Assembly (NCBI GenBank): GCA_045837725.1
Contig: JBEWZL010000036.1
Coordinates: 124,001-188,000 of the forward strand
Length of the DNA: 64,000 nt
Source: Vermamoeba vermiformis
Taxonomy: Eukaryota
Direction: 5' to 3'
The translations under genes were made by a program, and so were the position numbers. The notes under the pieces were generated by a model. It was not told where the DNA came from. It saw nothing but the letters and a program-made list of their open reading frames with translations, and did no database searches. This document shows positions 1 through 62,552 of this stretch, piece after piece (the stretch's first letter is position 1; the number at the start of each line of letters is the position of its first letter).

Positions 1-1864
1 GGCTTATTTGGCTGATTACACCGTTGGTGGCAGCGTTCACTTGGTCGTCAACAATCAATTGGGCTTCACTGCTACTGAGCGTGAAACTCGCTCTGCTCGC
101 TATTGCACGGACATCGCCAAGTTGATCGGTGCTCCAGTCTTCCACGCTAATGCTGACAGACCTGAAGAAGTAGCTGCCGTCACTGAGATTGCAGTGGACT
201 TCCGCAACAAGTTCAAGAAGGACGTGTTCGTCAACGTGATTGGTTACCGCCGCTACGGTCATAATGAAATGGACGAGCCTTCATTCACTCAACCCTCGAT
301 GTACTCCAAGATCAGATCCACTCCTTCCGTCGTGCAATTGTACAAACAAAGCTTGGAAAAGAAGGGCGTAGCTGTCAATGTTGATGCTGAGCTCAGCGAG
401 TTCAGCAAGTACTTGGACGAGCAATTCCAGAAGATCCAAGACTACACTCCTCAATTCCAACACCTCCAAGGCAAGTGGGCTGGATTCAAGCAGTTCTCTA
501 TTGATGAGAGCAACGTGGACTCGTGGAAAGCTGAATGGACTCCCGAGACTGGTTTTGACGTCGAGAAGTTGAGACAAATTGGTCTCACTACTTGCAGTGC
601 TAAGACCATTGAGGTCCACCGCTTGTTGCAGCGATACTTCCAGGGCCGAAAACAAAAGTTGGAGGCTGGCAGCGGCATTGACTGGCCGACAGCTGAGGCT
701 TTGGCTGTTGGATCACTCGTGGTCGAAGGTCACGATGTGCGATTGAGCGGTCAAGACACTGGCCGTGGTACATTCAGTCACCGTCATTGGAAGCTTTGGG
801 ACCAGACTCCCGCTGAATTTGACGGCGAGACAGGCGTTAAGTACGAAATGCCTCTGAACAACTTGCAATCCAAACAAGGTCGCGTCACTTCTGTCAACAG
901 TTTGTTGAGCGAACAGGCTGTCTTGGGCTTCGGTAAGTCCTTCTTGTATTGTTATCACTTATCTAATTAATATCAGAGTACGGCTACAGCTTCGAAGAAC
1001 CGAATGCTTTGACTATCTGGGAGGCTCAATTTGGTGACTTTGCCAACGGAGCACAGATGATTATTGACCAGTTCATCGTGTCAGCTGAAGACAAATGGGC
1101 TCGTCAATCAGGCGTTGTTCTCTTGTTGCCTCACGGTTACGACGGTGCTGGTCCCGAGCACAGCTCAGCACGCATTGAGCGATACTTGCAAGCTGCCAAC
1201 GACGATCAATTCCGTCGAGTTCCTGACTCACGCGACAAATCAATTGTTCCCAACATCAGTGTCATTTACCCCTCAACTCCTGCTAACTACTTCCACGCCT
1301 TGAGACGTCAAATGAAGCGTAACTTCCGCAAGCCGTTGGTTGTGATCGGTCCCAAGACTTTGTTGCGTGATCCCATGGCCTCGTCTAGCCTTGAAGAAAT
1401 GGGCCCTGGCACTCGCTTCCAATCTATCTTCCCCGACAATAATGCAGATTCGATGAGGTACGTAACCAATACAGTCATATTTAACGCGTCCTAACTATTC
1501 GTACAGAGTCCAAAAGGTCGTTTTCTGCTCTGGCAAAATCTTTTACGAATTGTTGAACGAGCGAAAGAAGCGCAATGCTGAAGCAGAAGTCGCCTTGATT
1601 CGCATTGAAGAATTGACGCCGTTCCCTGCTGAAGAACTTGAGCAAGAAATGTTCAAGTACCGTCACGTGATGCAATTCGTGTGGTGTCAAGAAGAGCCTC
1701 AGAACATGGGCGCGTGGTCATTCATTGCCCCTCGCTTCAAGAACTTCTTGAACATTGATTTGCAGCTCGTCAGCCAACCTCCTTTGGGACCCTCCGCTGT
1801 CGGCAACAGTGCTGCTCATCAGTACTGGTCTAAGCACGTCATTAGCTCGTGCTTCGATATTTAA
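1..1864 (+). CDS. DHTKD1: 2-oxoadipate/2-oxoglutarate dehydrogenase E1 component, DHTKD1-like (5' truncated by window; introns 933-976 and 1458-1506)
   Basis: Motifs [83 protein letters not shown] and GYDGAGP fit DHTKD1 better than OGDH. GT-AG introns restore the frame. Confidence 0.85.
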
Positions 1865-12922: not shown

Positions 12923-15900
12923 TTAATACAATTGTTTTTGACGCTTAATCTTTTGTTTTTTCCATTCGGGCACTTTCTGTTATTTAAACCAAGTTAGATC
13001 CAACCACAACAATAAATATAATTTAACTTACCGCGAACTCTTCACGACTCATGCCCAACACTTCCTCGAATTCATCGTCTTCCAAATAATTCTCCAAGTT
13101 AGCAACGTCAATGCCAGCAGGGAACTGTCGGTCCACGAGTTCTTGATAAGTGTATTTTCTGTTGTATTGAGCCAGGTACTCGGTCACTGAGCCCAGACCA
13201 TCCTCATCGTGACTCGGCACAGGCGACCAAGCCACAAAGTGCTGTGTGAAGCATCGTGGCTCTTTGCCCTTGCCTCCCTTTAAGTGCAAGACCACTTCTG
13301 AAGCATCGCCTGGTCGCTTGTCGACCGCTTTTATCTTCTCAAAGTAAGCAACTACAATGCATGTGATTAGTATAAATATCAAGTAGGCGATGACTACTAA
13401 TAGTGTATATGATATGAGACTTGCCTGCAAACTCCATGCTGAGTTTCAGTTCGGTGAAGTCATGCGAGCTCTCGTGTTGCCAAACATAGATACGATGATA
13501 AGTGTCCAATACAAAGCAGTCATTTCGCTCTAAATCGTCTTGACAGAACGGCCACACCTCATCGACTTGGAAATCTCCCGAGGCAATAGAACAGCGGAAC
13601 AATCGCGGAATTTGTCGTCGTTGGTAACCTTGCGGGTAACCCATACTCATAATCTTCGTGTCACTAGCAGTAGTCTCCAACAACTTCCAGAACTTGTCGG
13701 CGTGCTTAGACGACTTGCCACTCTCTTCAATCACGTGTGCATCGAGTTTCATGTGCTTGGCGAGGTGTTGCGCGTACTCGAACTCGTAGTCGTGCGACAA
13801 CTTGCCACGCCAAATGAAGAAGTACTTGCTGTTCAACAACACAAAGCACGAGGCACTGGTCAAGGCTCGAGCAGAGCAGTCAACTTCCACTGCGCGCACG
13901 TAGCCTGGTGCACTGCCACTCACTTCGAACAGCTTCGTTTCTATGGTATGACAGCGGTGAGAATTGTGGACTAAAATACAATCATATGGAATGGATTCTT
14001 ACCTTTTTTCTCAGCGGTTTCACGGCCTCGATGGATCAACAATTTGCCGTTAAATGCAGCTAAGAAATGTTTGGGCTCTTGATTCTGCACCACTCGAATT
14101 TCTTTGGCACTGCCTCCCGTTGCCGCTGCATAATAATATTAGCACTAATGGACAATCGGAAGTCAAATAAGTGAATGGTCTTACCTTTCTTCAACTCGTT
14201 GTCCATTTCCATGGTCAGCAAGGCAGAAGTACCACGATCCAAACTGGGCGAGTCTCGGCCTTGCCAGAAATAAATCAAATACGACTCCTTGTTTCGCCAC
14301 ATGTAGCTATAAACAGATGTGTAAATAATATGTATGTAAATAATATGTATGTATGAAAAGGACTGATGATTTTTGTTACCTGTATAAAATCAAGTACGAG
14401 TCGGCGGAATAAAATTGACCGTAATGAGATTTCGGGACCTCAACTTTGGTGAATTCTTCAACGCGCCAAATTTGTAATTTGCCTTCACCGTTGTCGATCA
14501 TGACTTCTTCCTTCAACGGGAAATCTTTGGACAATTTCTCCGCGATAATTTTGATTCGTTCAGATTCGCTGATGGTCGAATTCTTTTTGCCCGCAACGTT
14601 CTTGCCAGACGCGACTTGTTGAATTTGAATCGTGGCGCCAAAGCCCCAATTAGCAAACTTTTCACGGAACAAAACTGTTTCTGCATCGGGCAATTCGCGG
14701 CTGATGGGTGCAGTCCACACCTCTCGACTGGACTTGAGTTCTTGCGCCAACTTCAACGTGTGATTTCTGAGTGGCACTGCTGACTTGCGACCGCTGCAAA
14801 TACAAAATTTATCAATTTATTCTCAGAAAAGTAGTTCATGAAAAGAGAGACTTACCACCACACGAACAGCTCTGAAATGCAGTCCAATACATAGCACGAA
14901 TCTTCTTCCAAAATCTCTTTCTTAATCACGCCTGATGCGACTAAGACGGGTTCAATCTTGTTCTTGACTTGCACGACTTTGAACAGCTGAATGAACTGCG
15001 TGATCATCTTTTCGACCTCCAAGTCATCGCCTCCTTGTTCCTCTGTTAAAATTTCACCGCGAGTACCAATCAAGCGCCAGAACTCTTCAGCTTGCGAGCC
15101 TGAATCTGATGTACCTTGGTCCATCATGACATATCGGGCATTGCCTAAAAAGGAAAGTCAACAACCGGATCTTGGTCATGTATTTGAAGCATGAGTACTT
15201 ACCTCCTTTTTCTTTGCCCTTGATGTTCTTAAGCATATCAAGTGCTTTGCCCTTCTCAATACGATTGGACTTGCGACCGTTCCATTGGAACAAAATATCT
15301 TTGCCGTTATCGAGGATGAACACGTCACCTTCGTTCAGTGAATCACGAGCCATCTCAACTTGACGCACAAAGATTCTTTTGCGACCTTTGATGTGGATCA
15401 ATCTTGGCTGGCCTTTCTCACTCAACACGGGACCAGTTGACTTCAAGTTCTTGCGCTGGAACAACACTTGATCCGCACCAACACTGTACAACAAACTGTG
15501 AAAAAATCAAGTTAGTCTTAGATAGATTAAGCCCTGTGAGTAATATTACCCGTAGCCACCGACTTGAGCAGCAGCGGCGTTGTTTCGTTTAGGCTGTTCA
15601 TTTGCAGCAGCCTCTTCAGTCTTGTCACTCATCGATTGGCTGCTCGTGTCATTTCGCTGGTCACAGTGTTAGTATTAATCAACGAAATAACTTAATTGTA
15701 CTTACAGTGCGCATTGGGTTGCGCGTAGGTGCTCGACCAGGAGCAGCAATACGACGAGGATTGGCCAGTCTGGTCGTTGTTTTAGTGGCACCAAGTGACC
15801 CAATGTCCGCTGCACCTTCTTCAGGTTCTTCGCTGATCGTTTCAGTTGGCGTACGACCACGTGGTGAACCAGGCGCTTGATTGGGCTTGCTAATGAATGC

Positions 15901-18548
15901 ACTCAAGCGGTACTCGAGTGGCAAATCTTTCATCTTGTGTCTGCGCTTTCGACGCAAGACTTGTTCTTGGTTCTCCATAGCGTCTTCAAAGGGCTTCAAT
16001 CTTGCCTTCAAATCAACCGAGGGCAATGACTTGATCTCGGGCATGGCAGGGAACTCTTGACGAGGACTTGAGACCTTTGGTGGCGGTGCTTCGGGCTCTT
16101 CTTCCGATGAGAGGTCTGACACTTGTGACACTTCTGACATTTCCGAACGAGGACTCTCTGACCTAACGGATGACACGTCACTGTCAGCAACGGACACGTC
16201 CTCGCTCGTTGACATGCTGTCAAATTCATCGCCAGAATCTTCAGCAGCAGTGCCGGGAGGAGCAGGTTGAGTTTCAGGTTCTTCAGCAATCGTCTCAGGC
16301 ACATCAGTGGTCTTAGGACTCGGCTCTTCGTTCAAGTTGGACCGAGATCCACTTCGCTCGCGCGTGTAGAACTTGGCTTTGGCAGTGTCCCATGAGTCAT
16401 CCATCCAATCGTAGAACTGTTCCATGAACTCCCACGTCTCGGCACCGTCAATAGTCCAGTTGACATTGCGGTCAGTGCCGTGCGCAGCCAGTTCTTCGGC
16501 TTTGAGTGCAGCCCATGATTTACAGTTCATCGTGGCGTAGAGACCAATCCAGACGTACACATCTGAAATGGAGTCGAGTACGAAGCAGCTGACTGAATCT
16601 AACATTGTTTTGCTGAGTGGTTCGCCTTGCAGCACGACAATGTTCAAGCGGTCGTTCTCGTCTTCGCTGAATCGATACAACTTTGTTTGTGTCAATCGTT
16701 TCATCAAGTACTGATTGTCGGTCTCGGTCGCGTTCTTAATGTACGAGATCTTCTTTGGATTCGCAACACCAAAAGCTTTCCAAAAGTCCGTAGACAAACT
16801 CCTGCTGTACCTCTGTTTGCCTTCCAAGATGATAATATTGGCTCCAAATGCTTCCTCCGTCGTGATCTTTTGTGCAAAATAAATAGCTTTTTCTTTCTCG
16901 CGCTTGTCCGAGTTGTAACCGACCCACACAAACATCGAGTCAAAGTTGTCCAATAAGAACACATCGTCATCCGCGAGATTGGCCATTACACACGGCAACT
17001 TGTCCACGAGCACGATGTTCTGCACGCACTTGAATCGATAAAGTCTTCGCTTGTTCGCGGAAATAACAAAGTCGTTGGACGTGTCGGGTGAAGTAGTCGC
17101 GCTGCCCGGGGTAGTTTGACCCGATTTTTTGCCACTGTCGCTAGGCTTTGGCACGTTCAATATGGGCACTGTTTTAGTAGCCGGGACCTCTGGTGCATTG
17201 GTATTGTTTTGGTTGTTCTCGTCATCGCCCCACGAGCCCAAAACAGCTCGGCGGGGTGCCACTGTCACTTCAGTCGACGGCAATCTGAAGTGTCTCGTGC
17301 GTGGTTTTTTAGGCTGCCACGTCCTTTTGCCTTCTCTAGGTGGCTTGTTCGTGATATATTTGAAAAGTGATGCTGGATCCGGTTGTGAATAGATATTTTT
17401 GTCTTCGAAAAGATTTTCTGCCAGATCCAAAACAGCCAATCGTGTCAATTTTGTGATCGATGGTGGTAGTGTCATAAGCTGATTAGAGTTCAATCCAAGT
17501 TCCTGTTAGCATTGTACTGCGTTAGAATATGTTTTTTGCCATAAAAGGAAATTATTGTTACCTTTAAAGAACAACAGTTTCCAATCGTTGAAGGCAGTTC
17601 AAACATTTCATTATTGTCTAAATATAACTAATACATCGTTAATATATATAATACAACAATTCTTAACGAAAAATTGACTTACTTTTGACAGCGAGGTCAA
17701 TCTGCTGATAGTTTCAGGAATTTCAACAATTTCATTATTGGACAAATTCAATACTACTAAGTGCTCTAACATTCCTATTTCACTTGCAATCGTCTTCAAA
17801 TTATTCTGATGCAACAACAAATGTTGCAAGCCAGCCAATTGCGAAATAGTTGTCGGAATTTCATCGATGAGATTGTACGACAAATTGAGCATTGTTAACT
17901 GTTGCAGTAATTGTACTGTTGGACATATAGTCTTGATATTATTGTTTGATAAATTGAGTTCGCGCAAATTGAACAAATTTCCAAAAAGATCGTCCATTGT
18001 TGTAATGTAATTGTTCGACAGATCCAGCTGAAAATAACGAAATATTAGTACAATAAGAATAATATAACATATTTACTTAATTTTAATAATATTTACGAAT
18101 CTCCAATCGAGATTACGAGAAGATACCGCGGAAAAAAAGATTTTTGTAACGATGTAATGTGAGATGATTATAATAATATAAACATTCGTTATATAATATT
18201 ATAATGTGTTTAATTATTAATATTTACCTTTTGAAGCTGCTTGAGGAAAAATAACTCTTCATCGATGTGTTTCAACAAATTATTTGAAATTGATAGCTCG
18301 CGGATCTTGCTGATTGAAAATATTCCAACGAGAGAAGTCAGCTTATTATTATTTAAATTGACTATCTCCAAGTTTGAATATTTTGTCAGATCTTTTGTCA
18401 GCTCGGTAATATTTTTATCGCTGAGATCTATTTCTGTTTGATTGGGTTGATCTACATTATTGATATTGACATTATTATTATGACTAGGCTTATTAGGATC
18501 GTGTCCGTGGCCTTGTGGCGGCTGAGCTGTGCTGTCACCATTACCCAT
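12923..18548 (-). CDS. LRR + gelsolin-repeat + villin headpiece actin-binding protein (flightless/villin-like)
   Basis: N-terminal LxxLxLxxNxL repeats; gelsolin repeats (DVFLLD..MFVWVG, SLNEGDVFILD, YGQFYSADSY, IYFWQG); headpiece LENYLEDDEFEEVLGMSREEFA|KVPEWKKQKIKRQKQLY-stop. Confidence 0.9.
14320..14355. repeat. Short intronic tandem duplication (TGTAAATAATATGTA x2)
   Basis: Two perfect 15-bp copies followed by TGTATG. Confidence 0.7.
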
Positions 18549-28393: not shown

Positions 28394-30397
28394 ATGACAA
28401 CATTTAAGTTGACCGACGAGCTTCAAAGTCAAATCTCAGAAGAGGTGCGTGAATGGTCCCTCGCGCACGGTCTATTAATGGGTGGTAAAGTCGCACCGGT
28501 CACGCTCTTGCCCACGCAATATCCCAAGCAGTTGTTCCATCAAGCTGAAGCGTTAGCATTGCCATTTAATAGATTGACACATTTAGTGGCATATGATCGC
28601 AAATTTATGAATGAAACGATGAAATAGTAAGTAGAAATCAATTTCAGAAAATAATTCAAAAATAATCGAAAATTCTCCAATAATTTCTGGCGTTGATATT
28701 TTACGACGGCAACCGTCGGTATATAATAAAATACTTATTTGACGGCAGCTTTAATATTAACGGAGCTTTTGATTTAGTGTCCGAGATCCGTTCGCGCAAT
28801 CTCTTCTGAAAATCTACAACACAGTTTTCGACGAAGGCTTGGCCCAAGTAAGCAATAAACTATCATTGTATATCTATATTTACAATCAATTCAGACTAAA
28901 GTGCTCGGCATTCACCGATCAGATTACATGATCCACCAACAGGCCAATAGCAGCGCAGCACCTTCACTGAAACAAGTAGAAATGAACAGAATATCATGTG
29001 CATTTGGAGCACTAAGCAGTTTAACAAGCAAATTACATAAGTAAGCCAAAGACTATTAAATCTACTTGTTACTTATTTTGGATCTGTAGACATGTGATTG
29101 AACAGTTCGAGTTAGAAGAACTTTATTCGACCAATCAGCTACCTCCAAAGAATGACAACATCGAGAATATTCCATTCGCACTGAGTGAGGCACACAGACA
29201 TTACGGCAAGCCTAAGTAAGCCATCTTAAAGATAGCACTGTTCAACGGATCCGTAACCTTCTCGTTCAGTGCTGCAGTTGTGTTTTTAGTCCAGCCTGGT
29301 GAAAAGAATTCGATCGATCAACGGCAATTAGGATATAAATTACAGGAAAAGTACGATCATTTTGATTGGCCACCGACCGAATCCACTAATTTAACTTGCC
29401 TAATATAGTTATGGCATTAAAGTCCTGCGAAGAACTCACCACGATATTTATGAACGCGCCAAGCTCGATGAAAATAACGGCCGTGCATTGTGGATGTAAG
29501 TCAAATAATACTTTTGTCGCAGGTCAGAGTTTGACAGGTGTCATTTTTTTGACAGTGACGGCCATGAGGTGTCAGTCATTTATTTCCGCTCTGGCTACAC
29601 GCCCAAAGACTACCCCACTGAAGCTGAATGGGCTGCCAGACTGACTATTGAACGATCACGTGCCATCAAATGCCCGAACGTAGCGTACCAATTAGCAGGG
29701 CTGAAGAAAGTCCAGCAAGTGCTCGCAGACCCAGGCGTTGTCGAGAAGTTCATGCCCACTGAGGCCGCACAATTGCGAGAAAGTTTTGCTGGTTTGTATT
29801 CACTTGACCCGCCTCAAGTCCAACAAACCATTGCGCGGCTGTTGAACAACATTGATGGTCACGTGATGAAGCCACAACGCGAGGTATGTATTAGAGCTAT
29901 GTCATATGGATAGGAGCTAACGCGTTGATGACACTAGGGCGGAGGTAACTTATTCTACGGCAATGAGATGAAACAACACTTGTTGAAGGCCAAAGAAAAC
30001 AACGATTTCAACGGTAAGTTCAACAGCCTAATACTTCTAAATAATCTTCATCAACTTACGTACGATACAAAGAACTCGCTGATTGGATTGCGATGGAACG
30101 ACTTTACGCCCCTGCAGTTGACAGTAAGTAGCGCAGACTTGCCGATGAGTACGTTATTTATTTATGCTCTCAGGTCTCGTGCTGCGTGACGGTGTTGTGA
30201 CTCCCACACAAGGCGTGCAAGAGCTAGGCATGTTCTCGTGTTGTTTGGCAGACACGACCACGTACAACGGACAGACAGTGGTCGAGTACCACTTGAACAC
30301 GCACAGCGGACACTTGTTGCGCACCAAATCAGCGGACAAAGAAGACGGTGGTGTCGCTGCTGGTGTTGCGGTCCTTGACTCACCGTTCTTAGTTTAA
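28394..30397 (+). CDS. GSS: Glutathione synthetase (eukaryotic type)
   Basis: [81 protein letters not shown]. Confidence 0.95.
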
Positions 30398-30441
30398 TGT
30401 AATGCGAACCATAAATAAAAACTATCTCGTTAAGTATCAAA
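30331..30441 (+). repeat. Direct repeat copy 1 (GSS last codons + 3' UTR)
   Basis: Matches 32781-32893 at offset 2450: 3 substitutions over the first 95 bp, then a small indel. Confidence 0.95.
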
Positions 30442-30648
30442 TGCAGATTGATTACTCGCTGTAGTCGAATAATAATTAAACTTGAGCGATCCCGGATTTC
30501 CAGACGACGCCGTTGGTGCTTGCATCATCTGTAAAAATAAGCCACCCTTGCGATCTATAAGTTGTTTTTAATTACCCGAAACTTGTTCGGCAAACCAAAA
30601 ACGGATCAGTTTTTAATTTTTAACAAGAAACAAACCAAAACGCCACAA

Positions 30649-32539
30649 ATGGACTTATTCGAGGCAAGACGTGAAGGATATATTACAGCATTAAAGGATC
30701 TCCATAAGGACGGCATTCTATCGTTGGAGGAATTCAGAAAGCGAGAAGCAGAGCAGTTGGCGGTAAGGTCCAGCTCAAAAAAATTAGCCCGTTAATTGGA
30801 TTATTCAATTATTAACTATTAGAGCACATTTACATCGTTAAACAGCTTCTTTATTTTTCGTAGTATTATTTCGATTTTAAGTTCGAAATTGCAAATTCTA
30901 ACTCTTATTCAAGAAACAATATACCCGCCCTTTTGCCAGTACTTTATTTGGTGATAGCACCTTATTTGGTGGCCAGGCAAACACTTCTCCCTTTGGTGGC
31001 CCTGGATCTTTTAGTTTCGGATCTACAGCAGAGCCAAGTCCAAATCTCTCAGCATTTGATCTTCGAGCAGAGTCTAATAGTACTCCATTTACCTTTGGCT
31101 TAAGTCCCTCCAAGAGCAATAATGATACCGCGTTTCCAAGTTTCAGCTTCCCTGCATCTGGGTCTGACAAGCTAAACGAACAAGGTAGTGCTTATAATAT
31201 ATAGCGCTAATTGATATGAATTAATTTTAAAAGCGCCGAATTTCAAATTAATTTTTTTTGTTTTAGATGCGGACGATGAAGTCGACGAGTTAGCGGCACA
31301 AATCCAATCGAGCACCTTGCAAGTTCGAGATTTTGTTATCAGAGAAGGCATGTCAGTGCCAGTCTCATCATCAGGCACTATTCCTGCATTCAAAATATGT
31401 ATTGTGGGTGACGGCGGTGTTGGCAAAACATCCTGGCTCAGTCAACTGAAGACCGGCACATTTGACACAAAATACGTTCGTAAGTGTTAATTAGCTTCAT
31501 TAGTAACGCATTTGATAACATTAAACATCGTAAATATAACCACTATTATGCTTATTTGAATTTTATTTGATGTTACTTCGAGCAATCGCAAATTGAATTA
31601 AAGATCCGTTGGATTTAATACTAAATTGTTTACAATCGCTGTTTTGTTAATTAACTTAATTGCAATCACAATTTTAACGATTACTAATGATCCATTCATT
31701 CAATATTAAAGCAACGGTTGGCGTGGAAGTCATGCCTGTCGTCGTGACCACAAACTATGGACCAGTCTGCATCAATGCCTGGGACGTGGCGGGACAAGAA
31801 AAGTTTGGGGGGCTGAGAGACGGTTATTTGTACGTAACGACATAATAATATAGTATTCCTATTTAAGTTAAAAATGTAGTTGCGATGAAAAGTCGGATCC
31901 GGTGTTCGAAATTTCAGCGCAAATCTTTAAAGCAGTCTTACTATATTATACTAACGACAATGTATTTTTAGTACTGGATCTAATGCCTATGTGATTATGT
32001 TTGACGTGACAAGCAGAGTGACGTACAAAAACGTTCCAAATTGGTATCGTGATGTGACCCGAGAAAATTGTGACCGGCCAGTCGTGTTAGTTGGCAACAA
32101 ATGTGAGTTGAAAGAGCGCAAAGTTCGGCCCAAAGAGATAACTTTTCATCGCAAAAAAGTAAGTCAAACTTAAAACTACAATTTTTCGGATCTTTACGAG
32201 CGAGTCCTAGCAACATCTAGTAATTAACTAACACTCATATTGCCTAGGGTTTGCAGTACTATGACATGTCAGTGAAGAGTTGTTATAATATTGAGAAGCC
32301 GTTTTTACATTTATTACGAATGCTGATCCGGTACGTAACACAATCAATTTGCTCGAAAGGAAATTTCGTTATTAATACATTATTTTTCTTTTAGTGATCC
32401 CGATTTACATTTCGTGTCCGCTACTGATGGCACAGCACTACCAGAAGTGCCTATTACAAACCAACAAATTGCGCAGTACGAAGAAGAACTGAAGCGCCTT
32501 GAAACTGCACGTCCTCTTCTTGATGACGATGAAATTTAA
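30649..32539 (+). CDS. Divergent Ran-family GTPase with N-terminal SHOCT-like and FG-rich extension
   Basis: Spliced: [90 protein letters not shown], acidic tail LLDDDEI-stop. Upstream exons join in frame. Confidence 0.88.
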
Positions 32540-32780
32540 ATTTAATAAAACGTTCAAACTCGCAGCTGCGACCAAGTACACAAAATGTCTTGATTCGTTT
32601 TGATCGGATATGCTGTCCCGTTTGACACTTTGACACCAGTGTCATCGCGTGGGACTATGACACGCGATACAAAGAACTAGCTGTGTGGATTGCTATGGAA
32701 CAACTCTACGCTCTTGTGTGGTTGTTGTAAGTAGTTTGTACAACCTTGGTAGTGATAGGACATAATTCCTGATTGTTGTT

Positions 32781-32893
32781 AGCGAACAAAGAAGATGGTG
32801 GTGTCGCTGCTGGTGTTGCAGTCCTTGACTCACCGTTCTTAGTTTAATGTAATGCGAACCATAAATAAAAACTATTACTTGTTAAGTATCAAA
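32781..32893 (+). repeat. Direct repeat copy 2 (orphan duplicate of GSS 3' end)
   Basis: Near-identical to 30331-30441, including codons for [19 protein letters not shown]-stop and AATAAA. Confidence 0.95.
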
Positions 32894-32933: not shown

Positions 32934-33555
32934 TTACGTCTCTATAGAAGAATAGATGTTGGGCTTTGGAGAAGGAGAAGTTAAAATTGTTTGCAGGTAA
33001 TCGACCATCTTTGTGGCCCTTTTCAGCTTTGTCTCGAGCTTTTCATTTTGGGCCTCGAGTATGGCAACCCTCCTGGAAGCGAGCAAATTAGTACTGCAAT
33101 TACTTGTGATAGGACTGCTTACTGTCTCAGCATTTTGATGCTGCCGCTGCTCTTCTTTTCCAAATCTCGGAGCTTAGTAGTCAGCCCAGTGACTTGGCGT
33201 TGAAGTGCGTCATTGACACTGGTCAGTTCGGTGACTTGGTGTTGAAGCGCGTCATTGGTATTGGTCAAATCGGTGACTTGGCGTTGAAGCTCGTCATTGG
33301 CACTGGTCAAATCGGTGACTTGGCGCTGAAGCCTGTCGTTAGTGTCGCTCAATTGGGCACTCTTCTCATTACAGTCTCGAACTTGACTCTGAAGACGACC
33401 AACTTCGGCGATCAGCACGCCGACCTGATCTGCAAAACCTCTAAGCAATTGAATCAAGTACAACAATTCGACTTACCATCCTCAATTAGGGCAGGCACTT
33501 CCGTTAAGCCGCTGGCTAGGTAGGCAACCGAGGGCTTTAGCACTTCTTGCGACAT
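32934..33555 (-). CDS. Small coiled-coil protein with 14-aa tandem repeats
   Basis: ATG at 33555, two GT-AG introns, repeats NDxLQxQVTxLTxx, stop at 32934. Confidence 0.65.
33189..33346. repeat. 42-bp coding tandem repeat (~3.7 copies)
   Basis: Unit GTGACTTGGYGYTGAAG..CGTCATTG..ACTGGTCA..TCG repeated in tandem. Confidence 0.9.
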
Positions 33556-59902: not shown

Positions 59903-62552
59903 ATGAACATCAGAATTGACGAAGGTCACCACGATAAGCGTAGCTGGGAACCTTGGAGTCAAGAGGAAATTAAAGTTTTTTTCGATTCGATCGTAAAATA
60001 CGGCAGAAACTGGGCTCTCATCGCGAAAGAAATTGGAACAAAGCGCCAAGAACAAGTAATTATTATCCCGATAATTATCAAGCCTTAATCAATTAATCAA
60101 TAATTCTATTTTTATTTTGAAAATAATGGCCAATTTAATTTCCAAAACCTCGTTTGCTTTTGCTCAAATCACACTAATATGTGATAAATAATTGATTATG
60201 TAATATTGTTAAATTAATGGCATTATTTAAATTCGTGTGAACGGTCAGCGGCCTCATCTCTTTACTCTCACTTGTGCACGTACTAATAATACTTTCCACT
60301 TCAGGTTAGAACATATTTTTATAGATTACTTAAGAAGGTCACTAAATTGCTCGAGCCACTTCACTTTACTTTCGATTCTCGCGATCGGATGGACACTTTG
60401 ATCGCACTCGTTTGCTATTGGGAAGCTAAGCGCGATCTTAATATACCAGAGGCGCCAAACCCATCTGCAACAGCGAGCTTAGCTAGAGCAGTGCGCGACA
60501 GAATTATTAAGTAAGTTCTAACAATATGGTTGAATTTCGTTTGAAAGTTTAGAGTACTTTGAACTTCCGTAATTAGTAGAAAGTGAAGTTCAAAGTAAGG
60601 AAATATGACCGAAAGAGCAAACAGTATTAATATTTATTTTCTCCAAAGACAACGCAAAGAGCTAGAACTGATGCGGTCGCGACGACTTCCAGCACCCGAG
60701 AAAATTACATTCCAGCTCGTTCCTATAAGCAATGACATGGCGTCTGACTTATCGCAAGCTGGGTGTAACCCGCGATTACAGTAAGCGTCATTTTGGTCTT
60801 CTAAGAAATTAATTCTTGAAATTTACTAGCCGTTACACGAGCTAATTAAATTCGTGCAGGCTCACTGTTAAGTCAAGCAAGCGACTGTCGTCCATCATTC
60901 AGCACTTAATGAGCAAGTGGACACGTCCTGGCAACGAAGGCAAGCGTGTCTCAATTGCCACTGGCCCTATTCGGTTGTTTCCGCACCTAAAAATGGGACA
61001 TCCGGGTTGGGGAGTTGAGGACGAGGAAGTTACAGCGCTGAAGTTGTTTCATGCACTAGGGTGTCCTGAGATATGCAAAGTAGATTATAGTTGGAAGGCT
61101 GTACCAACTCAACCGACGCAACAACAGCATCTGGGATCGGATCTTAGTGCAGCGGAGCTCGAGCAATATTATCAATTATTCAATAATGCAGAAGGAAATG
61201 TTGCAATCAAGAATGAAGGAAGCAATCATAGTGGCGAGAATAGTTATTCACCAGAAGGCCACTATTTTACGCTGGATGATTTTCATCACTCGGATGAGGA
61301 CCACTTTGACGATCTGAACATCAAGTTGTCGTCGAATGATGCCTTTGGATTCGAGTCAGGCGAGAGTCACAGCTACAGCGTCGAAGAAAGACAAGTTATA
61401 CTGCCGGACATTTCCATGAACACGTTAAACAATTTGTTGAACTCCGGTGGAGCGAGCACGAATCAAAGAACAGCTTGAATACCAGTCAAAGCGGACTCAA
61501 TCTATCTCCTGTATCGATCAACAACGCCAGCATCAACAACGTCACTGTTCAACAACAAGAACGAGAGAATGCAAACCAGCGAAGCATGTTGAACGCAAGT
61601 TTTTCCATACTTCACGATGCTTCGTCAATGGGCTTTGATGCGTCTAACGACATGTTTGGCACTGGCTTCAAGCACGCTACGTCATCGTTCTCAACTGCAG
61701 TGAATAACTTGAAGGTCGAGAAGATCCAATCCGATCAGTCGCCGCCACCGTTCCTCGGAACTAACAATGGCACCAATGGGCAAGGCTATCCATCAAGGCC
61801 ATCTCCTGTTACTAACGCTAAGCGAAGGTACGTTGGAAACATAACCACAATTTTTTCGATCGCAAAAGCGGATCAAAAAACCGAATCTGGATGCGCGAGT
61901 TGTTTAACCTCGTTAGATCGGCGCAGGAAGTACTTGTGGGCGTTCTTTGTTAGTGTTCGCAAGTAGTGACCCGAACACGATGTTGCAAAACGTCTCGGGC
62001 ACGACCACACTAACAAGAATGCACCGCTTCCCGTCCGATCAGCGAAGTTAAGCTTGTTCAGGCCTTCTTAGTACTGGGGTAGGAGACTACCTGGGAATCG
62101 GAGGTGTTGTGCTCTTTACTTTTTGCTTTTTTGCTTCGCTGCTTGGCTACCCGTACCCTTATTTCGCGTTATCATTATATCACCGAACATCTTTCGGCCT
62201 CCACATCCAGATTCGAATCCGATTTCACTTTTTTTTGCTTATTGTTTTCAGACGGCATTACTAACGCGCAGTATTTAGATTACAACCGGAGTCCTTATTC
62301 AAAGAGGATTCGCTGGATGTTAGCGAGGTTCCTTTACGCGCATCAGCTGGTTCACGTAACAACGGCCCAAGTACCAACAACAAGACGTCTCTCGGTGTTC
62401 GACTCAACGAAAATGGCAAGCGAGACTTGCAGTCGTTCATTGAGGAGACGTCTTTCGTGCCATTTCGCTCTCAGGTATTCGGATCTGGCAGCACGCAGGA
62501 AGACAACGACGGTTCTGCTGCTAAAAGGCGAAAGCTGGATTCGGTGCCTTGA
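59903..62552 (+). CDS. SANT/Myb protein, Cramped (CRAMP1)/TKI1-like; apparent frameshift near 61465
   Basis: WEPWSQEEIKVFFDSIVKYGRNW..IGTKRQEQVRTYFYR; KITFQLVP..GCNPRLQLTVKSSKRLSSIIQHLMSKW; last exon ends AKRRKLDSVP-stop. Confidence 0.75.
61997..62115 (+). rRNA. 5S rRNA: 5S ribosomal RNA gene (intronic)
   Basis: 119 nt, colinear with eukaryotic 5S: ACGACCAC..GAA..CCCGTCCGATC..GAAGTTAAGC..GGCC..TTAGTACTGG..GGAGAC..CCTGGGAA..GGTGTTGT. 5' GGGCAC pairs with 3' GTGCTC; T-runs follow (Pol III terminator). Confidence 0.95.

Follow-up and report, generated by a model that had tools for sequence, protein, structure and literature searches.

A transcribed seven-exon gene of Vermamoeba vermiformis encodes a divergent Ran-family GTPase with an FG-rich N-terminal extension

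Introduction

Ran usually occurs as a separate protein of about 215 residues and is extremely conserved, and the FG repeats bound by its partners sit on other proteins. The question whether a Ran GTPase and FG repeats can be carried by a single polypeptide is raised by a locus at positions 30649–32539 (plus strand) in 64,000 nucleotides of contig JBEWZL010000036.1 from Vermamoeba vermiformis (assembly GCA_045837725.1, contig positions 124,001 to 188,000); this whole stretch of DNA is referred to as the window. The first-pass annotation, made from the letters of the DNA, had read the locus as a Ran paralogue preceded by a SHOCT-like pair of helices and a nucleoporin-like FG-rich linker. The locus is a genuine, transcribed, seven-exon eukaryotic gene, here called the Ran-like gene, and its protein consists of a helix-loop-helix, an FG-rich arm, an acidic linker and a divergent Ran; the confidence placed in the gene and in this architecture is high. 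What appears to be new, as far as the searches made here reach, is the front end, which found no counterpart in them, the Ran family itself being known.

Gene structure and transcripts

Four sequencing runs, all from one study, contain 33–48% of the sampled words of the interval 30600–32600, a share close to the exonic fraction there, and two of these runs, X1 and X2, were used for the transcript comparison, in which their contigs were aligned to the window. The gene model and its accompanying signals are as follows.

30636..30648, plus strand: minimal 5' untranslated leader; the X1 contig begins at 30636 and no ATG lies ahead of 30649
30649..30762, plus strand: exon 1, with the start codon and a 38-residue helix-loop-helix, SHOCT-like below threshold and a dimer in the model
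30914..31184, plus strand: exon 2, residues 39–128, FG-rich, rich in Ser/Thr/Pro/Gly and low in charge
31267..31479, plus strand: exon 3, with the acidic linker (residues 129–156), the internal Met157 and the first part of the Ran core, which includes the P-loop GDGGVGKT
31712..31829, plus strand: exon 4, Ran core segment with switches I and II
31972..32158, plus strand: exon 5, middle of the Ran core, including the NKxD-type motif (NKCE) and the HRKK patch; Pfam Ras match with E 1.2e-11
32248..32330, plus strand: exon 6, with the SAK-type motif (SVK) and the final core helix
32395..32539, plus strand: exon 7, with the Ran-specific C-terminal extension, the acidic tail DDDEI and the stop TAA
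32544..32549, plus strand: AATAAA, likely polyadenylation signal, 5 nt past the stop; the contigs end at 32465

Joined together, the exons form a single open frame of 376 codons that closes with the TAA stop at 32537–32539, and all six introns begin with GT and end with AG, with lengths of 64–232 nt and a G+C content of 23–34%. The genomic frame upstream of the ATG at 30649 is closed by a stop at 30538–30540, and this ATG, the first of the transcript contig, has A at -3 and G at +4. The 156 codons that precede Met157 contain no in-frame stop, against 4 and 12 stops in the two other frames, and the same stretch stayed open in only 1 of 20,000 mononucleotide shuffles.

The X1 contig, with a length of 1070 nt, spans 30636–32465 without a single differing letter and begins 13 nt upstream of the first ATG, and the X2 contig, with a length of 967 nt, spans 30644–32158. 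Both omit exactly 30763–30913, 31185–31266, 31480–31711, 31830–31971 and 32159–32247; the last intron, 32331–32394, is omitted in the X1 contig, and the same joint was found in further X2 contigs. Depth was close to nil over the intergenic flank 30440–30585 and over four of the six introns, which indicates that the contigs are of cDNA type and not genomic DNA. The gene model and the in-frame joins of the first-pass annotation proved correct, given the 376-codon frame and the spliced contigs that start upstream of the first ATG, and the two joins for which it had sought transcript evidence (30762/30914 and 31184/31267) are present in the contigs of both X1 and X2. The helix-pair peptide of exon 1 and the FG and FxF motifs of exon 2 are translated where it had placed them, and its three-part layout of helix pair, FG-rich linker and complete Ran core with acidic tail is borne out. 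Transcripts lacking the upstream exons, which it had named as evidence against the fusion, were absent from the contigs seen, with which an additional shorter isoform remains compatible.

Some variation was also observed among the contigs. Those of X2 differ from the window at 31353, 31355 and 32425, which is probably allelic variation, and the changes at 31353 and 31355 together convert Ser158, directly after the internal Met157, into Ala. Intron 3 is partly covered, together with its exon borders, by two contigs of 151 nt (31469–31619 in X2 and 31569–31719 in X1), and this coverage could represent retained or unspliced intron 3. A comparison of intron 3 with Rfam (E <= 1) gave only a weak minus-strand match to a C/D-box snoRNA (E 0.087, 25.5 bits against a cut-off of 43), and its folding was not unusual (z-score 0.58). 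No reads of the raw-read RNA runs X14 and X16, which carry the same species label, aligned, and these two runs provide no test of expression.

Conservation of the Ran core

The core of the protein is, by its sequence, clearly a member of the Ran family, and a divergent one that differs from canonical Ran in total length (376 against about 215 residues). The Pfam Ras family, against which the first-pass annotation had suggested a check, was matched by exons 3, 4 and 5, with the match of exon 5 reaching an E-value of 1.2e-11 and 44.9 bits against a cut-off of 21.6. The search with exon 5 gave 426 matches at E <= 0.001 among 428 candidates, with identities of 62–76% and no identical or near-identical protein; Ras-family Pfam domains occur in every one of the 120 matches listed, whose function names are almost all Ran or Gsp1, with a few entries named 'hypothetical protein'. 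The full model aligns end to end with the Rans of Capsaspora, a sponge, a rotifer, a coral and several fungi, and the aligned features comprise the P-loop, switch I, switch II, the HRKK patch, the C-terminal helix and the acidic tail DDDEI, in agreement with the complete Ran fold with acidic tail that had been annotated before. The retained Ran motifs include the switch I Thr, a switch II segment of 15 letters and NKxE, and the G motifs (18 letters) and SVK align with their Ran counterparts. For exon 7 the best match among solved structures was residues 174–216 of yeast Gsp1 (E 0.019), a weak match at the right position.

The identity to 68 full-length Rans, namely the matches of 200–250 residues among the 120 listed for exon 5, ranges from 48.3 to 58.9% with a median of 53.6%, against a median of 71.8% among those Rans themselves, and it is 23–29% to the four loci L018–L021, whose matches to the query are the weakest among the loci and which were taken as other small GTPases. 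The protein departs from the 68 Rans at fourteen columns with a conservation of 95% or more. The gene is probably a Ran paralogue. The motif NKCE was considered as an abnormal G4 motif and rejected as such, Glu occupying that position in 18 of the 68 Rans.

Met157 is located 13 residues ahead of the first core strand, where ordinary Rans begin, and from this position we infer that the 156-residue front end was added later at the 5' side, in the form of two new exons together with a recruited leader. The acidic linker harbors at residues 146–153 (31317–31340) the hydrophobic pattern LQVRDFVI, which would fit the spacing of a class-2 nuclear export signal, such patterns being frequent by chance.

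Composition of the FG-rich arm

Exon 2 is FG-nucleoporin-like by composition and motif content and not by homology, and the arm of about 90 residues that it encodes is probably disordered. It contains 12 Phe in 90 residues and five FG dipeptides, the number given by the first-pass annotation, against a mean of 1.2 in 100,000 composition-preserving shuffles (P = 0.0019), so the motifs are enriched beyond composition. Ser, Thr, Gly, Pro, Asn, Gln or Ala account for 59 of the 90 residues and charged residues for 12. Clusters of this kind are confined to this place in the window, as a scan of all six frames over the 64 kb found at least four FG dipeptides in only 11 overlapping windows, at 30902–30932, out of 4712 stop-free windows of 90 residues. 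The nearest language-model neighbours of exon 2 are unnamed clusters (0.87–0.89), followed by Nucleoporin_FG, Nup42 and Nup98 at 0.80–0.84, and this ranking serves as a lead only. No tandem repeats were detected in 30600–31400, and the extension accordingly lacks internal tandem duplication.

The N-terminal helix pair

The peptide of exon 1, folded alone, is predicted to form helices at residues 3–20 and 26–37 around a Gly-containing loop at residues 21–25, with a pLDDT of 89.6. Its best Pfam match is SHOCT (PF09851), with E 4.9e-4 and 20.2 bits, in which protein residues 13–32 are aligned with positions 4–23 of the 28 positions of the profile, and weaker matches were obtained to the SHOCT-like DUF1707 and to EF-hand models. 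An EF-hand identity was rejected, EF-hand_1 (E 0.1) and EF-hand_6 (E 0.12) both lying far under their cut-offs; read against the EF-hand consensus, loop position 3 is occupied by His. The fold search with the exon 1 model yielded no matches at E <= 0.001, only generic helical hairpins, and the language-model search for look-alikes of exon 1 gave no usable match. The SHOCT domain is described as a unit of about 30 residues with two amphipathic helices and a conserved Gly and Glu, found near the C-terminus in 89.2% of cases and rarely at the N-terminus, and as mostly bacterial with 19 eukaryotic species recorded, in the paper that defined it (PMC3581485). Of the label 'SHOCT-type' given by the first-pass annotation, the two-helix resemblance with SHOCT as best Pfam match stands, and membership in the family does not, the score being below the curated cut-off (20.2 against 27 bits) and the position N-terminal; the resemblance is real, and it brings no known function with it.

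The modelling supports self-association of the exon 1 peptide as a dimer. With two copies of the peptide, the complex model obtained a score of 0.81 (best of three controls, 0.03), and this mark was reached in a microbial benchmark by 21 of the 30 cases solved as same-chain pairs and by none of the 23 solved as single chains, and in a eukaryote benchmark by 17 of 29 pairs and none of 30 single chains. The runs agree in 100% of contacts, with a partner pLDDT of 93, and the same-residue contacts at positions 3, 6, 7, 10, 11, 14 and 18 suggest that the modelled dimer is parallel and symmetric.

Search for related fusions

Among the 120 listed matches of exon 5, only P0116 is longer than 249 residues; this protein, 1040 residues long and with a BIR domain, probably results from merged gene calls. 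P0004, a hypothetical protein of 179 residues, has a single Ran-like exon that ends after FHRKK, at the same point as exon 5, and shares with the Ran-like protein a Glu at a column occupied by Val in 65 of the 68 Rans; P0004 is possibly an orthologue of another organism whose gene was called wrongly. A Ran with an FG or SHOCT extension was found neither in the literature searches, which leave supplements aside and within which alone this absence holds, nor by a term search in PMC8311347. The DHTKD1-like fragment encoded by 2–967 of the window is only 43–48% identical to the best of its 7945 database matches, which suggests that the lineage is remote from the sampled proteins and that missing relatives may reflect poor sampling.

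Proposed function and alternative explanations

The preferred reading is that of a transcribed Ran variant whose core would still switch, whose FG arm would bind receptors and whose tip would dimerise, and the evidence leaves this combination about evenly balanced. The core would still cycle as a Ran-type switch, because the nucleotide-binding, switch and recognisable partner-contact motifs are kept. FG repeats normally bind importin-beta-type receptors, NTF2 and the FG phase of the pore, and the FG arm would supply the protein with a built-in affinity for these same partners, while the N-terminal module would dimerise the protein and double its valency, the likely outcome being a Ran variant that accumulates at nuclear pores or is carried through them. 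NTF2 has separate sites for RanGDP and FG repeats, and such two-site binding is reportedly the subject of a paper by Clarkson and colleagues from 1996, whose title is among the references of PMC8311347. Given these separate sites, the built-in FG arm could allow the Ran variant to grip such a partner twice, so that one receptor would be bound at its Ran site and its FG site together. This FG-tethering mechanism is put forward tentatively. The further idea that a dimeric Ran with its own FG repeats acts as a mobile nucleoporin-like switch dwelling in the FG phase of the pore is doubtful; if true, it would allow cargo release inside the channel or would secure the import of the protein itself despite its size. 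To our knowledge, such wiring of the Ran system has been reported for no organism.

Several observations weigh against this reading. The fourteen changes at near-invariant columns suggest that the core may have drifted and that some partner interactions were possibly lost. Five FG motifs are a small number, exon 2 matched no Pfam family at E <= 1, Nucleoporin_FG included, and an exhaustive HMMER scan with exon 2 over 1.84 billion representative proteins returned no real relative, its two matches (a bacterial cadherin-repeat protein and a low-complexity protein) having been rejected as unrelated repeat proteins. The search with the linker-bearing exon 3 against longer proteins found nothing, no fused relative occurs among the 120 listed matches of exon 5, and the matches of the 21 metagenome loci that have Ran-like exons in no case include residues ahead of 146. 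The case rests on one organism and shows no sign of conservation in these searches. The score of 0.81 expresses the confidence of the model for a short helical peptide folded without an alignment. The self-oligomerisation proposed by the first-pass annotation holds as a prediction of the complex model with its controls and draws no support from SHOCT itself, as the describers' own experiment (PMC3581485) gave no support for oligomerisation. The labelling of X1 and X2 as RNA is a guess and both come from one study, and their contigs cannot reveal transcript starts or isoform ratios, nor exclude a shorter isoform that begins at Met157.

Among the other explanations of the locus, the extension might be a fast-evolving disordered tail on a lineage-specific divergent Ran paralogue, with FG dipeptides incidental to a Phe/Ser/Gly-rich composition; the tail would have been gained through 5' exon gain, and the protein would act as a specialised copy of Ran, for example one specific to a life stage. 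This is possible, if on the unlikely side, and it is favoured by the fact that conservation of the extension was detected nowhere in what was searched, by the missing Nucleoporin_FG match and by the mere five FG motifs free of internal tandem duplication. The FG enrichment beyond composition (P = 0.0019) speaks against it, as do spacers like those of FG domains, low in charge and rich in Ser/Thr/Pro/Gly/Asn, a frame that stays open across 156 codons, and the module at the tip, confidently predicted and modelled as a dimer, which would be unexpected for a neutral tail. It is improbable that the gene is the only Ran of the organism, in a fast-evolving lineage, with the extension forming part of an essential transport switch. 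The neighbouring DHTKD1-like housekeeping protein, at just 43–48% identity to its best matches, is what such a lineage would be expected to show; Ran, however, is among the most conserved eukaryotic proteins, and the median identity of 53.6% here, against 71.8% among the 68 Rans, speaks against it, together with the 14 changes at columns that show 95% conservation or more in that set.

More improbable still is a main product of ordinary Ran size that starts at Met157, with exons 1 and 2 serving as a translated leader or belonging to a minor isoform. The position of Met157 at the normal start of Ran fits this explanation, and the contigs carry no information on starts or isoform ratios; yet exons 1 and 2 are joined in frame in both long contigs, the ATG at 30649 comes first in the contig with A at -3 and G at +4, and an open in-frame leader of 156 codons is unlikely by chance, as only 1 of the 20,000 shuffles produced it. 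An artefact of assembly or annotation, such as a chimeric contig or a processed gene copy located at another site of the genome, is very improbable, although the RNA status of X1 and X2 was guessed and a single study supplied both. Two independent assemblies contain the same six joints, with GT..AG borders and colinear with the genome, the X1 contig has no mismatches, and depth is absent from the intergenic flank and most introns, as fits RNA.

Should the fusion be functional, as the preferred reading of a switching, receptor-binding and dimerising Ran variant would have it, it would represent a natural experiment that joins both halves of nuclear transport chemistry, and would permit direct tests of the cooperation of FG and Ran contacts on one receptor and of Ran working inside the FG phase. 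The gene also offers a clear example of a core housekeeping GTPase that acquires new exons. If the arm is inert, what is left is a lineage-specific divergent copy of Ran, of modest interest.

Genomic context

The gene upstream of the Ran-like gene is a eukaryotic glutathione synthase, and its 3' end is represented on both sides of the Ran-like gene by a direct repeat.

30331..30425, plus strand: left direct-repeat copy, 3' end of the glutathione synthase gene (95 nt, with stop and AATAAA)
32781..32875, plus strand: right direct-repeat copy, a gene fragment 97% identical to the left copy

In addition, 30063–30114 recurs at 32665–32716 with 85% identity, about 150 nt being missing between the downstream pieces, and the pieces 32665–32716 and 32781–32875 together make up a shortened version of the 3' end of glutathione synthase. 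The downstream copy was read as out of frame and is thus taken as a relic, and the position of the Ran-like gene, with about 200 bp of upstream spacer, between the 3' end and its truncated copy is the footprint of an insertion or a segmental duplication at the DNA level.

Various other features were observed in the window. Downstream of the Ran-like gene, a minus-strand open reading frame (ORF) at 33119–33472 contains three 84-nt units at 33175–33342, offset by 42 nt and 80–100% identical, which encode a repetitive coiled-coil with generic coiled-coil Pfam matches, all except bZIP_2 below their cut-offs. The DHTKD1/2-oxoglutarate-dehydrogenase-E1-like gene lies at 2–1494 (plus strand), with its first 322 residues encoded by 2–967, and a stand-alone 5S rRNA gene lies at 61997–62115 (plus strand; 104.7 bits, E 6.6e-22). 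At 13339–18072 (minus strand), ORFs with leucine-rich repeats and gelsolin repeats adjoin in a Flightless-I-like arrangement with a long low-complexity insert. A scan for sigma-70-type promoters was set aside as irrelevant for eukaryotic DNA.

Comparison with known systems

The protein combines features of several known systems without coinciding with any one of them. The helix pair of exon 1 shares with the SHOCT domain, as described in PMC3581485, two amphipathic helices, a short Gly-containing loop and a following Glu, and differs in staying under the curated cut-off and in occupying the first 38 residues of the protein, SHOCT being mainly bacterial and without established function. With canonical Ran/Gsp1 the protein has the G motifs, both switches, the HRKK patch, the C-terminal extension and the acidic tail in common, whereas it carries an N-terminal extension of 156 residues and reaches 376 residues against about 215. 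Exon 2 resembles the FG nucleoporins in FG enrichment and in low-charge Ser/Thr/Pro/Gly spacers, but the protein matches no Pfam model of that kind, has five FG dipeptides only, and has no pore-anchoring domain that was recognised. Nup50/Nup2 and RanBP3/Yrb2, mobile cofactors of the Ran cycle, also unite a short FG stretch and a module of the Ran system in one polypeptide, by which FG and Ran contacts are coupled; that module is a Ran-binding domain in their case and the Ran GTPase itself here, and no sequence similarity to these proteins was detected. If the gene is a paralogue, it is also comparable to lineage-specific Ran duplicates such as the Ran-like retrogene of Drosophila, an extra, faster-evolving copy of Ran beside the canonical one; the gene of V. 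vermiformis differs in the new N-terminal module that it has acquired and in its six spliceosomal introns, which show that it did not arise as a retrocopy.

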